Positions 45,001-48,000 of a stretch of DNA of 64,000 nucleotides are shown here, one piece after another (the stretch's first letter is position 1; the number at the start of each line of letters is the position of its first letter). The position numbers were made by a program. Source of the stretch: Escherichia coli (GTDB lineage Bacteria; Pseudomonadota; Gammaproteobacteria; Enterobacterales; Enterobacteriaceae). The DNA lies in NCBI RefSeq assembly GCF_002854065.1, contig NZ_CP024147.1. One strand, 5' to 3'.

Positions 45001-48000
45001 CTGCAAAAAGCTGCTTTTGACGCACTTACCAAAGCAGGTTTCTGGCTGGATGATGTTCAGGTCGTTGATTACCGTGTTGTGAAGATGCCCGTTACCAAAG
45101 GTGGGAAGCTGGAGCTGACCATCACTGAACTGGGAGATGAATGATGTTTGAGTCTTATATGGCAGAACGTCTTCGCCGCCGCTGGGTGCGCCTGCACTTA
45201 TATCATTTTCCCGGTTCTGTTTTGACCGATTACCGAATACTGAAGAATTACGCCAAAACCCTGACAGGAGCAGGAGTATGAAGTCAGAGATAACAATCAA
45301 CTAATACTGTTTTGTTGATTTTTGCTTGTAATTGGCGTTCTGGTCTGATTTTTGTGGAGTAAGTTGATGCGTGATATTCAGATGGTTCTTGAGCGTTGGG
45401 GAGCGTGGGCGGCTAATAATCATGAAGATGTGACCTGGTCGTCCATTGCCGCCGGTTTTAAGGGATTAATTCCTTCAAAAGTAAAATCTCGCCCACAATG
45501 TTGTGACGATGACGCGATGATCATTTGCGGGTGCATGGCCCGTCTGAAAAAGAACAACAGCGATTTGCATGATTTATTGGTGGACTATTATGTCGGCGGC
45601 ATGACTTTTATGGCGCTTGCACGTAAGCATGGGCGATCTGATTGTTGGGTTGGCAGGATGCTCCAGAAAGCTGAGGGCGTAGTGGAGGGTATGCTGATGG
45701 TGTTGGATCTCCGATTGGAGATGGATGCTGATTGTTCGAAATAATTAAAGGAAAAGTTGCTGTCTGATTGTCATTAGTCTAACATTTTAAATGTTGGAAT
45801 CGCAACGTAGTTATTATCATATAACAGCTTGTTTCCTGATTTAGCCAGCCTCCCCAAAGGCTGGTTTTTTTCTAATAAGTATCATTTCGGGTAGGGATTT
45901 TATTGTTTAACCCATAATAATTCATTGACATTGAATCCCAACTTTTGAGCGGTTCGCACATAGTCTGCTTTTACTTTATCTGGAATAGTTGAGGTCCTTG
46001 CCAGAATCCATAGGTATTCTCTGTTCGGACCACTGACAAGAGCATACTTATACTCATCATCCAGTTTGATTACATTATAGCCACCATAGAAGGGGCCAAA
46101 AAACGAAACCTTCAACGCTGCAGTTTTAGTATCTCCAGTAAAGTATGCTTTACCTTCGCTCTCGCTCCATTTATTTTTCGTTGGATCGTATCCACGGTTA
46201 AGTACACGAATCCCTCCGTCGTTCCGTTTTCCATAAGTAGCGCTGACCTGTTCCAGACCACGTTCGAACCGGTTCTCGAGGCGAGCTATTTCATACCATT
46301 TTCCGAGGTAGCGGTTGGCGTCAAAATTTGTAATCGGCTGCACACCTTTAGGTGGTGTCGGGGCCTTACATGCTATAAGAGTGAAAGAGAGCGCAATGCC
46401 AGTCAACACAGGCCATAACTTCATAATAAATCCTGTACTTTTGATAGTTGAGAGTAAGTATGAAAGATAGATGATTACGACCGATCACTTAAAGAACTTT
46501 CATACTATATTAGGAATAGTCCATAACAGAAAAATTGTCAGTGATGACGCCAGAAAGGCAATTTATTCCGTGCACTACACAGTTTATGTGTTAATGAATT
46601 AGTCAAGGGGGAGGATATGATAAAAAAACCTGTGATTGGAATCAGCGGTTGTTTGGCCGGTTCTGCTGTTCGTTTTGATGGTGGTCACAAAAGAGCTGAC
46701 TTTTTAATGGACAAATTAGTGGAATGGGTAACATTCAGACCAGTATGTCCGGAAATGGCTATAGGGCTGCCAGTTCCGCGTCCTGCTCTACGTCTTGTGC
46801 GCTCGACGCAAGGAAATATACGGATGTGTTTCAGCCACGACCAGAATGAGGATGTGACAGAGAGAATGACAGAGTTTAGTCGTTCTTATATGGACAAATT
46901 AAAGGATGTATCGGGGTTTGTGGTTTGTGCTAAATCTCCCAGCTGTGGCATGGAGCGCGTGCGTGTCTATGATGAAAATGGTAATCGAGGTCGTAAAGAT
47001 GGAGTGGGACTATTTACGAGCACTTTGATGGAAAAGTTTTCCTGGCTACCGGTTGAAGAGGATGGGCGATTACATGATCCAGTGCTTCGTGAGAATTTTG
47101 TTGAAAGAGTTTTTGCTTTGCATGAGCTCAATCACCTTTACAAGGAGAAATTATCAAGAAGAGAGTTATTGGCTTTTCATAGTCGTTATAAGCTTCAGTT
47201 GTTGGCGCATAGTCAGACAGGCTATAAAGATATGGGACCATTTGTGGCTGCAATACACGAGTGGGCGGATCTTGAATCATACTTTGAGGTGTATCGTGAT
47301 AAGCTGATGGCGATTCTCAGAAAACCTGCATCACGTAAAAATCACACGAATGTGCTGATGCATATACAGGGGTATTTTAGTAACTACTTAAGTACACGCC
47401 AGCGTAAAGAGTTGAGCGAGGTTATACTTAACTATCGTTCTGGCACATTACCTCTTCTTGCGCCGTTGACTCTGCTGAAGCATTATCTGGGTGAGTATCC
47501 TAATGATTACTTGCTTACACAGAATTACTTCGATCCCTATCCGGACGAACTGGCTCTAAGACTGATGGTAAATTAATTGTATGCGATATCATCCAAAAGG
47601 ATGAGTTCCTGCATACAGGATATTTACAATCGTAAAAACTACACTATGATACCCAGAGTGTCAGTTTGTATAAAAACTCTGTTTACGCTGAAGAAACCAT
47701 TGAGATGCAACTTAAATTTGGTAAACATGCCAGTCAAAATATATGATATTATGATTCCACGCAGCTATATATAATATAACAGATTGGTGGTAATGACTCC
47801 AACTTATTGATAGTGTTTTATGTTCAGATAATGCCCGATGACTTTGTCATGCAGCTCCACCGATTTTGAGAACGACAGCGACTTCCGTCCCAGCCGTGCC
47901 AGGTGCTGCCTCAGATTCAGGTTATGCCGCTCAATTCGCTGCGTATATCGCTTGCTGATTACGTGCAGCTTTCCCTTCAGGCGGGATTCATACAGCGGCC

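Follow-up and report, generated by a model that had tools for sequence, protein, structure and literature searches.

A Probable Moron Cassette of Lambda-Like Coliphages, Carrying a Lipocalin Gene and a Predicted tRNA 4-Thiouridine Desulfidase Gene, in a Decayed Escherichia coli Prophage at thrW

We conclude with high confidence that the region following the antiterminator Q gene in the 64,000-nt stretch of Escherichia coli DNA analyzed here (the window) is a moron cassette from a temperate, lambda-like coliphage, left behind in a prophage at thrW that has since decayed, and that its 319-aa gene is rudS, encoding a tRNA 4-thiouridine (s4U) desulfidase. The features of the locus are collected in Table 1. 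ORF calling across the window recovers both blc and rudS, which are divergently oriented and directly preceded by Q. The GC contents of blc (44.0%), rudS (43.3%), and the spacer between them (34.4%) compare with 51.8% for rusA, 52.4% for ybcN, and 49.2% for the whole window. The dip at blc and rudS is moderate and real relative to the flanking phage genes (~52%), and the range for the cassette, 32–44%, deviates from the flanks as in a moron. An earlier note on this DNA had described a lipocalin gene and a DUF523/DUF1722 fusion gene, both of low GC, arranged divergently after Q at 45900–47576; composition, orientation, and Pfam and NCBIfam profile searches bear out each of these points. It had also placed the cargo where lysis genes would be expected. 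No lysis genes follow the pair within the window, but intact phages hold both cargo and lysis genes, and those genes are missing here because of IS1-mediated decay, the cargo not being their replacement. The prophage is a 13-kb remnant that lacks the cI repressor, N, replication (O, P), lysis, and structural genes and contains three IS1 copies. These elements interrupt the block formed by Q, blc, rudS, the AraC-like gene, and the lysis genes; one lies 212 bp past rudS and separates it from the AraC-like gene, an insertion that intact relatives do not have.

Table 1. Coordinates of the cassette genes, candidate signals, and insertion sequences in the window
Feature	Coordinates	Strand	Basis or remark
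Antiterminator Q gene (126 aa in the annotation of identical RefSeq records)	45367..45744	+	PHROG phrog_79
Candidate pR'-like late promoter: TTGCTG, 17 nt, TAACAT	45757..45785	+	13 nt past Q stop codon; read from sequence
Intrinsic terminator, candidate tR': 9-bp GC-rich stem, then T7	45843..45873	+	Terminator scan
blc, predicted outer-membrane lipoprotein of the lipocalin family, 174 aa; lipobox LIAC19	45900..46424	-	Pfam, NCBIfam, and PDB matches
Divergent AT-rich spacer, 192 bp, GC 34%	46425..46616	.	Between blc and rudS
rudS, predicted tRNA 4-thiouridine desulfidase, TudS [4Fe-4S] domain + DUF1722, 319 aa	46617..47576	+	Pfam; identity to RudS_vir
Promoter-like site: TTTACA, 16 nt, TATGAT	47623..47650	+	10/12 consensus matches only; precedes AraC-like gene in intact phages
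IS1 copy between rudS and AraC-like gene	47789..48556	-	768-bp inverted repeat, 100% identical to second copy; InsA/InsB ORFs
AraC-family regulator gene (YdeO/PatE-like), GC 31.7%	48705..49436	+	Third cargo gene of cassette
Second IS1 copy	49624..50391	+	Right end of prophage remnant; then chromosomal ykgL-ykgO-ykgM

The assignment of rudS follows from its domains, its identity to a studied enzyme, and its catalytic residues. The N-terminus of the protein matches Pfam 2-thiour_desulf (PF04463, formerly DUF523; residues 7–149, model positions 1–141, E = 1.6e-39), and the C-terminus of the same polypeptide matches DUF1722 (PF08349; residues 192–309, model positions 1–117, E = 2.5e-40). Residues 160–315 also match the NCBIfam YbgA model (E = 1.5e-56) at 190.8 bits, below its equivalog cut-off of 237. 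Proteins with this TudS-DUF1722 fusion received the family name RudS and were characterized as tRNA 4-thiouridine desulfidases in 2024 (PMC11417400). The protein in the window aligns without gaps, at 93% identity, to gp66 of Escherichia phage 1H12 (H3V29_gp66, YP_009909557.1), which is RudS_vir in Table 1 of Jamontas et al. (Nucleic Acids Res 2024, PMC11417400), with Cys12, Cys44, and Cys110. None of the 22 substitutions between the two falls at a catalytic position. The [4Fe-4S] ligands Cys12, Cys44, and Cys110 occupy the same positions as in RudS_vir and RudS_ST, and Glu46 (in C-P-E), Arg55 (in P-R-P), and Ser107 and Ser109 (in K-S-P-S-C) are likewise present; all seven residues are unchanged across 15 homologues of 66–97% identity, so the conservation of the N-terminal cysteines on which the earlier assignment depended holds. 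Mutagenesis of RudS_KT identified E51, S111, S113, R60, and three cysteines as catalytic, and these correspond to Glu46, Ser107, Ser109, Arg55, and Cys12/44/110, respectively. In an alignment to TudS (PDB 6Z92; E = 2e-4), Cys12 falls opposite Cys10 and the CPE motif opposite Cys43–Glu45. The dN/dS ratio is 0.11 for rudS and ranges from 0.07 to 0.2 among blc and rudS alleles; a comparison with Citrobacter sedlakii gave no estimate, the synonymous sites being saturated.

These data allow a mechanism to be proposed. In the TudS domain, Cys12, Cys44, and Cys110 would ligate a [4Fe-4S] cluster whose free fourth iron would bind the sulfur of tRNA s4U8. A water molecule activated by Glu46, which would be placed by Arg55, Ser107, and Ser109, could then hydrolyze the thiocarbonyl to give uridine, with the sulfur leaving via a [4Fe-5S] intermediate, while the DUF1722 domain would dock onto the anticodon arm of the tRNA. 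The s4U8 residue is the near-UV photosensor of tRNA and crosslinks to C13; its erasure by RudS would remove that sensor and should thus shorten the UVA-induced growth delay. RudS_vir was one of six enzymes examined in the published work, and its overexpression decreased tRNA s4U in E. coli, although it was the less active enzyme of the panel despite being well soluble (PMC11417400). Overexpression of RudS_KT reduced the UVA growth delay from ~105 to ~60 min, a phenotype seen for this overexpressed Pseudomonas enzyme only (PMC11417400). Sequence identity, domains, catalytic residues, conserved synteny, and purifying selection are observed here, and the literature shows that the phage enzyme of 93% identity removes s4U. 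From these we infer the chemistry of the exact allele in the window, which would remove sulfur from tRNA s4U as RudS_vir does in vivo.

The divergent neighbor of rudS encodes a predicted outer-membrane lipocalin. Its product matches Pfam Lipocalin_2 (E = 8e-43), scores 313.5 bits against the NCBIfam model "outer membrane lipoprotein Blc" (cut-off 267), and aligns with the PDB chains of solved E. coli Blc structures (E = 5e-68). The translation begins with a signal peptide that ends in a lipobox, MKLWPVLTGIALSFTLIAC19-K. Lipoproteins are sorted according to the residue at position +2, and lysine rather than aspartate at this position would fit sorting to the outer membrane. The chromosomal Blc of E. 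coli resides in the outer membrane and binds lysophospholipids and fatty acids. The lipocalin in the window is 97% identical to gp65 of phage 1H12, and the dN/dS ratio of blc in this comparison is 0.07. Mathieu et al. 2020 (PMC6969025) listed blc as a frequent lambda moron and reported it for more than half of their 19 lambda-like phages from the gut.

The third cargo gene encodes an AraC-like protein that scores 127 bits against NCBIfam YdeO, below the cut-off. It is 83% identical to gp67 of 1H12 and 54% identical to the regulator ECs_0287 of Sakai Sp1, which we presume to be PatE. In all E. coli-type loci that have sufficient flank and are unbroken by insertion, this gene is the next after rudS; the earlier account of the region had overlooked it.

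The surroundings of the pair are conserved. The product of the preceding gene matches phrog_79, "anti-termination protein Q-like" (E = 1.3e-51), bears the name "antiterminator Q family protein" in the annotation of the identical strain CUWW06, and is at least 97% identical beside every blc-rudS copy examined. The order Q, blc (-), rudS (+), AraC-like gene (+), holin gene, lysozyme gene was seen in two isolated phages, four other E. coli genomes, and 36 IMG/VR contigs where the flank was long enough, and in every case inspected the cargo is bounded by Q on one side and the lysis genes on the other. Among 5426 complete E. coli genomes, 1135 (21%) carry rudS and 996 carry the Q-blc-rudS block; the two ORFs of the window are 100% identical to alleles of many genomes. 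In all E. coli cases inspected, rudS is linked to a prophage. The blc-rudS pair is accessory cargo, mobile and horizontally acquired, as had been suggested from its composition, and is not part of the core chromosome. RudS has been stated to be absent from E. coli (PMC11417400), which is untrue for about a fifth of strains.

The earlier note had pointed to thiolated tRNA as a possible target, a guess that matches the effect of RudS_vir on tRNA s4U (PMC11417400). It had also considered the pair unusual and a candidate for unexplored biology. That view does not stand, as the RudS family, including the 93%-identical phage enzyme, was characterized in 2024 (PMC11417400) and blc is a known moron (PMC6969025); blc-rudS is a cargo cassette that lambda-like coliphages commonly carry and that has been described before. 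Because the enzyme family, its chemistry, a phage orthologue, and the blc moron have all been published, the locus carries little weight as a discovery lead. Its distribution has a consequence of its own. Since rudS resides on prophages of so many E. coli strains, strain-level differences in tRNA s4U and in the UVA response are to be expected, and natural isolates allow them to be tested.

Outside E. coli, the pairing of the two genes is ancestral and chromosomal, being found in Enterobacter, Leclercia, Citrobacter, and their relatives, which is a new observation. Of 41 other enterobacterial species, about 20 have blc lying upstream of chromosomal rudS in divergent orientation, usually with an MlrA-like MerR regulator in between (241 aa, MlrA/CarH-like; MlrA model, 7e-58). 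No gene for a MerR/LitR-type regulator is found in the phage cassette. The ancestral association of blc and rudS with an MlrA/CarH-like regulator leads to the hypothesis that both genes are members of a single stress regulon. It also offers a functional partner for Blc, whose role is vague. The blc-proximal half of the phage spacer shows weak colinear similarity (z = 2.2–3.7) to the spacer between blc and mlrA in Enterobacter, Phytobacter, and their relatives, and the block TTC(A/G)TA(C/G)TATATT is common to both. The rudS-proximal half gives z of ~0, so the similarity is suggestive only and we do not take the spacer to have arisen by a clean deletion within a chromosomal region running from blc and mlrA to rudS. 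The spacer also contains AAAATTG-N21-CAATTT at 46531–46564, which we take to resemble the MlrA box. This candidate operator was rejected; it occurs in spacers of E. coli phages only, is found in none of the chromosomal ones, and is degraded in 1H12. A 43-aa ORF at 46471–46602, annotated as a CDS in phage IdasGreatGrand, is probably no gene, being truncated by a stop codon in 1H12.

How rudS might be transcribed was considered from the signals around it. Just past Q lies a site read as pR'-like from its position and its weak match to consensus; across five aligned phages and prophages its -35 hexamer is unchanged and its -10 hexamer is TAACAT or TAATGT. It was not among the sites reported by an automated promoter scan. 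The terminator that follows folds as RNA with -26.2 kcal/mol (z = -4.5 versus shuffles), its hairpin is unchanged in five relatives, and it is a candidate tR' that would be read through by Q-modified polymerase. An Rfam search of the 36–52 kb portion of the window at E ≤ 0.1 returned only thrW and two sub-threshold chance matches, one of which overlaps this hairpin. Within the spacer there are promoter-like sites, as consensus-level matches, and a strong Shine-Dalgarno sequence (GGGGGAGG) ahead of rudS. Scans place one terminator-like site ahead of blc and, in intact loci, one past the AraC-like gene. In intact phages, the Q/pR'/tR' unit precedes the cassette and the lysis genes follow it, so rudS could be read by two routes: from a spacer promoter of its own in lysogens and, upon induction, by late transcription under antitermination by Q. 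The remnant in the window lacks repressor, N, replication, and lysis genes, and Q-driven expression may therefore not happen in this strain.

The benefit that such expression would bring, and to whom, can be read in several ways. One, which we consider less likely than not, is that the cassette serves the phage rather than the lysogen. In this reading, rudS would be a late gene that Q activates upon UV or SOS induction, and s4U8 would be stripped so that UVA crosslinking and the stringent response spare late protein synthesis. The orientation of rudS is that of the late operon, it lies between the Q/pR'/tR' unit and the holin gene, and the scans gave the two terminator-like sites noted above. 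Its slot is the one that carries stx in Stx phages. Crosslinking of s4U is known to trigger growth delay and the stringent response (PMC11417400). However, late transcription into rudS would cross blc in the antisense direction, and the AT-rich spacer, with its promoter-like sites and strong ribosome binding site, is equally compatible with independent expression in lysogens. The cassette is, moreover, intact in many defective prophages, such as those of the window and E. coli HS, and this speaks for an advantage to the host.

A broader proposal, somewhat doubtful at present, is that blc, rudS, and the AraC-like gene form a phage-borne module against sunlight or photo-oxidative stress, taken from an enterobacterial locus under MlrA/LitR control, in which RudS would erase s4U8 and Blc would handle damaged envelope lipids. 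If so, lysogens or freshly UV-induced cells would go on translating and avoid the UVA growth delay and stringent response, and a prophage would set roughly a fifth of E. coli strains apart from K-12 in tRNA s4U level and UVA physiology.

That the pair in the window is an inert relic, with intact frames in a dead prophage and no current function, seems unlikely. The gene losses and IS1 copies of the remnant, together with the IS1 that parts rudS from its downstream regulator gene, would suit this reading. Yet neither blc nor rudS is shortened, many genomes hold alleles 100% identical to them, their allelic dN/dS ratios are low (0.07–0.2), and the spacer, with its putative promoters and ribosome binding site, is undisturbed.

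It is very unlikely that RudS acts mainly on free thiolated bases or nucleotides, such as 4-thiouracil or 4-thio-UMP, in a TudS-like thio-pyrimidine salvage or detoxification rather than in tRNA editing. The catalytic domain does belong to the Pfam "2-thiouracil desulfurase" family, and TudS enzymes recycle 4-thio-UMP (PMC10611767). When a uracil auxotroph was fed 4-thiouracil, RudS_vir gave the shortest lag of six RudS enzymes (PMC11417400), so tRNA may not be its sole substrate. Nevertheless, no RudS, RudS_vir included, sustained TudS-like growth on thiouracils, and all of them decreased tRNA s4U (PMC11417400). In addition, the DUF1722 domain, which has a published contribution to tRNA binding, is intact in the protein of the window and under purifying selection.

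A role of the pair in an anti-phage defense or counter-defense system working via tRNA is extremely improbable, its location in a prophage accessory slot, a kind of site that often houses defense genes, being set against the lack of a PADLOC family at E ≤ 0.01 for RudS, Blc, and the AraC-like protein, the chromosomal homologues that adjoin MlrA-like regulators and cfa-like and lipoprotein genes rather than defense genes, and the absence of any nuclease, ATPase, or toxin partner. The empty PADLOC scan of the three cargo proteins led us to reject membership in a defense island; of the context proposed in the earlier note, recurrence of the pair in other prophages and phages was found, whereas the link to defense islands was not.

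The reading of the locus as a moron cassette with a tRNA s4U desulfidase can be placed among known systems. RudS_vir of phage 1H12 is the same as the protein in the window in length, two-domain architecture, and cysteines, and its gene has the same neighbors, with Q and divergent blc upstream and an AraC-like gene downstream; the difference is that it resides in an inducible phage, whereas rudS in the window sits in an IS1-truncated defective prophage. RudS_ST (ORF319, STM1389) of Salmonella enterica LT2 shares the 319-aa architecture and the cysteine positions. The other chromosomal RudS proteins that were retrieved (Citrobacter, Enterobacter, Leclercia, Klebsiella, and relatives) are 66–76% identical to that of the window, and their genes have a GC content of 50–62%, versus 43% in the window. 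In these chromosomal loci, blc and rudS usually flank an MlrA/CarH-like MerR gene together with a hydroxyisourate-hydrolase-like gene, or else a cfa-like operon lies upstream, whereas the phage cassette has lost those genes and has the AraC-like gene in their place. A MerR/LitR-type regulator also adjoins rudS in the light-responsive loci of Pseudomonas and Salmonella. A phage rudS of Citrobacter type, at 73% identity and lacking blc, may represent a second capture. TudS (DUF523; PDB 6Z92) has the catalytic fold and the motifs C-L-x-G and C-P-E...P-R-P in common with RudS; stand-alone TudS has no DUF1722 domain and, unlike RudS enzymes, sustains growth on thiouracils. YbgA of E. coli K-12 (ybgA-phr operon) is the converse, with DUF1722 only and no catalytic domain, and its overexpression left tRNA s4U unaltered.

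The other two cargo genes likewise have known counterparts. The lipocalin in the window shares full length and lipobox with chromosomal E. coli Blc (PDB 1QWD, 2ACO, 3MBT); it is a diverged paralogue of that ampC-linked protein and is nearer (78–81%) to the rudS-neighboring Blc of Enterobacter and Leclercia. The third gene falls in the YdeO/PatE-like AraC group and has counterparts in the AraC-like prophage regulators PatE, PsrA/PsrB, and AppY. As a unit, the cassette resembles the other morons of the slot between Q and the lysis genes, which are stx in Stx phages and the nmpC/lc porin genes in DLP12 and PA-2. They share with it the insertion slot downstream of Q/pR' and an AT-rich foreign composition, and differ from it in cargo function. 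An eraser of a tRNA modification in the Shiga toxin slot behind Q thus offers a tractable case for phage editing of host tRNA modifications during induction.

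As the earlier note had described, a lipocalin ORF and a 319-aa two-domain ORF lie divergently after Q (ORF, Pfam, NCBIfam, and PHROG analyses), and the second very probably encodes RudS, a tRNA 4-thiouridine (s4U) desulfidase. The lipocalin has a Lipocalin_2 domain (Pfam, E=8e-43), scores 313.5 bits against the NCBIfam model 'outer membrane lipoprotein Blc' (curated cut-off 267), and can be aligned over its full length to E. coli Blc chains of known structure in the PDB (E=5e-68). A lipobox with Cys19 is present in its N-terminus, MKLWPVLTGIALSFTLIAC-K. As far as sequence can test, this protein has every defining feature of Blc.

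Coordinates of the features discussed (window positions unless a comparison locus is named)
Feature	Position	Strand	Description
thrW, tRNA-Thr CGT	36913-36988		other end of prophage remnant
Q antiterminator gene	stop at 45744		upstream of pair; PHROG E=1e-51
Promoter-like site	45757-45785		TTGCTG, 17 nt, TAACAT; conserved, between Q stop and blc stop (45900)
Intrinsic terminator	45843-45873		strong; 9-bp stem then T7
blc	45900-46424	-	174 aa, Blc-type lipocalin
rudS	46617-47576	+	319 aa, 2-thiour_desulf + DUF1722 fusion
IS1, first	47789-48556		212 bp past rudS; breaks cassette, AraC-like gene then follows
AraC-like regulator gene	48705-49436	+	third cassette gene in intact phages; GC 31.7%
IS1, second	49624-50391		inverted, identical to first; prophage end, adjoins chromosomal ykgL-ykgO-ykgM
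blc(-), MlrA/CarH-like gene, hydroxyisourate-hydrolase-like gene, rudS	L018 4019-6960		Enterobacter cloacae; ~20 others
cfa-like gene, 175-aa secreted protein, 176-aa lipoprotein, rudS	L008 3234-6960		Citrobacter braakii; ~14 others

Megablast against phage genomes found the pair in 12 isolated temperate coliphages, including Escherichia phage 1H12 (NC_049947), whose gp65 is 97% identical to the window Blc. Phages 1H12 and IdasGreatGrand, 36 IMG/VR contigs, and four more E. coli genomes sampled at regular intervals along the hit list all share one order wherever the flank is long enough: Q, blc (-), rudS (+), a 243-246-aa AraC-family regulator (+), holin, lysozyme, Rz. The cargo had been thought to stand in for lysis genes; because intact relatives keep these genes downstream of it, the cargo was instead inserted between Q and the lysis genes. 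Nor is the pair unexplored biology, as had been proposed. The 1H12 enzyme has been tested (PMC11417400), and blc is a listed moron in more than half of 19 gut lambda-like phages (Mathieu et al. 2020, PMC6969025); the blc-rudS finding is already known. All three cargo proteins fall into full-length PHROG families with no function assigned. The AraC-like protein is 83% identical to 1H12 gp67, with YdeO as its best, below-cut-off NCBIfam match, and shares 54% identity with ECs_0287, a Sakai Sp1 regulator that is probably PatE, the acid-resistance activator of EHEC. In the window, its gene lies between two identical inverted IS1 copies in a composite-transposon-like arrangement.

The low GC noted earlier is borne out: blc has 44.0%, rudS 43.3%, and the 192-bp spacer between them 34.4%, versus 49.2% for the window and ~52% for the neighbors rusA and ybcN. 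From their position, the promoter-like site and the terminator (RNA fold z=-4.5; hairpin invariant in five relatives) may form the pR'/tR' unit on which Q acts. If so, Q-modified polymerase would run antisense through blc and then sense through rudS, the regulator gene, and the lysis genes. The sole other terminator-like site found in intact loci follows the regulator gene. It is conceivable, though we would not favor it, that rudS is a late gene serving the phage itself, a reading compatible with our main explanation. The rudS-proximal spacer holds an imperfect inverted repeat, AAAATTG-N21-CAATTT (46531-46564), that resembles the MlrA operator. E. coli phage alleles keep this repeat, 1H12 has a degraded version, and the chromosomal blc/rudS spacers compared lack it. 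A 43-aa ORF in the spacer (46471-46602, +) is an annotated CDS in phage IdasGreatGrand. Since a stop codon shortens it in 1H12, this ORF is probably not a gene.

The prophage itself is decayed. The ~13.4-kb remnant from thrW to the second IS1 retains int, exo, bet, gam, kil, ybcN, ninE, rusA, ylcG, and Q, and lacks repressor, N, replication, lysis, and structural genes. The pair could be an inert relic in this strain, which we consider unlikely. Comparison of the two main allele groups gives dN/dS values of 0.11 (rudS), 0.07 (blc), and 0.27 (regulator gene); selection maintains all three. The lambdoid remnant in the window directly abuts thrW and has an intact integrase ORF (37003-38163, 386 aa), whereas strain CUWW06 (L001 582-13520) has a ~10-kb P4-like satellite inserted at thrW and an integrase that IS2 has split; the locus therefore varies between close relatives. 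A 660-bp stretch (42965-43626) adjoining another IS1 (42197-42964) is missing from the otherwise near-identical CUWW06; its ORFs encode a 102-aa lipoprotein-like protein (43023-43331, lipobox LAGC) and a 67-aa protein (43490-43693).

The pair is mobile rather than core, in line with the horizontal acquisition suggested earlier. Of 5426 complete E. coli genomes, 1135 contain rudS (1063 of them at near full length) and 996 the whole Q-blc-rudS block; 1187 of the 1189 matching places are chromosomal, and their positions vary. By these counts the cassette is accessory and mobile, and it is very common in E. coli. The RudS paper describes E. coli as without TudS or RudS homologues (PMC11417400), which is true of laboratory strains but untrue of the species. 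BL21 (NZ_CP053601.1 1558651-1558797) has just a 147-bp 5' rudS fragment left, annotated '2-thiouracil desulfurase family protein'.

Searching a single genome from each bacterial species gave 41 loci whose RudS is 66-76% identical, all in Enterobacterales. In 20 of these (21 with one at the edge of the fetched stretch), an oppositely oriented blc precedes rudS; its product is 68-81% identical to phage Blc, and neither Q nor an AraC-like gene is nearby. This comparison shows that the blc-rudS pairing is older than its capture by phage. Citrobacter sedlakii and Citrobacter sp. JGM124 have the two genes directly adjacent, ~190-230 bp apart, as the phage does. Enterobacter, Leclercia, Lelliottia, and others carry two further genes between them, which encode a 241-aa regulator of the MerR family (MlrA model of NCBIfam, 7e-58, under cut-off; N-terminal CarH match) and a hydroxyisourate-hydrolase-like protein. 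In ~14 other species, rudS is the last gene of an operon that also has a cyclopropane-fatty-acid-synthase-like gene and two genes for small secreted proteins or lipoproteins; two of these species have an MlrA-like gene farther upstream. Both arrangements look like a light or oxidative-stress regulon including lipid-handling genes, and the MlrA-like neighbors agree with the reported linkage of rudS to light-responsive MerR/LitR operons (PMC11417400). The blc-proximal half of the phage spacer weakly and colinearly resembles the chromosomal blc-mlrA spacer (z=2.2-3.7), and the rudS-proximal half does not. Phage copies (43-44% GC) are far lower in GC than any chromosomal homologue found (49-62%), so no direct donor was recognized among these. 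A second phage lineage, in Citrobacter sp. MGH106 (L021 6001-6960) and six IMG/VR contigs (L083-L088), carries a 73% identical rudS without blc; there the gene sits among nin/replication genes and precedes RusA and Q instead of following Q, which suggests at least two independent phage captures.

In lysogens or induced cells, the cassette would lower tRNA s4U and thereby blunt near-UV growth delay, and Blc would deal with envelope lipid damage. Overexpression of the Pseudomonas enzyme RudS_KT shortened UVA growth delay from ~105 to ~60 min, with BL21(DE3) as the assay host (PMC11417400). We hold any particular benefit with far lower confidence than the identity and chemistry of RudS. The tested phage enzyme gave the shortest lag on 4-thiouracil (PMC11417400); that RudS serves mainly in thiobase salvage strikes us as improbable. 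A defense function, for which PADLOC gave no match, is hardly credible. What keeps the region of interest is that an eraser of tRNA modification occupies the slot between Q and the lysis genes, that Blc and RudS have an ancestral link, and that RudS is prevalent in natural E. coli.

The TudS-DUF1722 fusion was named 'RudS' and shown to be a tRNA 4-thiouridine desulfidase by Jamontas et al. (Nucleic Acids Res 2024, PMC11417400). The window protein matches 2-thiour_desulf (PF04463, formerly DUF523; residues 7-149, E=1.6e-39) and DUF1722 (residues 192-309, E=2.5e-40) in Pfam, its C-terminal half matches the NCBIfam YbgA model under that model's cut-off, and many RefSeq genomes have an annotated protein 100% identical to it. 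The expected conserved cysteines, Cys12, Cys44, and Cys110, are present together with Glu46, Ser107, Ser109, and Arg55; all seven are invariant in an alignment of 15 homologues (66-97% identity). They are the counterparts of the RudS_KT cluster cysteines, E51, S111, S113, and R60, mutation of which abolished activity (PMC11417400). Judged by its residues and domains, the protein has every testable defining feature of RudS. The three cysteines would hold a [4Fe-4S] cluster, as the literature reports for the family and the sequence indicates for this allele, and the free iron would bind the s4U8 sulfur. Glu46, oriented by Arg55, Ser107, and Ser109, would activate water, restoring uridine, while the DUF1722 domain would hold the tRNA anticodon arm. 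In direct alignment with TudS (PDB 6Z92), Cys10 of TudS pairs with Cys12 and its Cys43-Glu45 with the C-P-E motif. The closest known system is 'RudS_vir' (H3V29_gp66 of phage 1H12; Cys12, Cys44, Cys110), whose overexpression lowered E. coli tRNA s4U, though less than the Pseudomonas and Salmonella enzymes did (PMC11417400, Table 1 for the gene). At 93% identity over all 319 residues with no gap, the window RudS is a near-identical allele of this tested phage enzyme.
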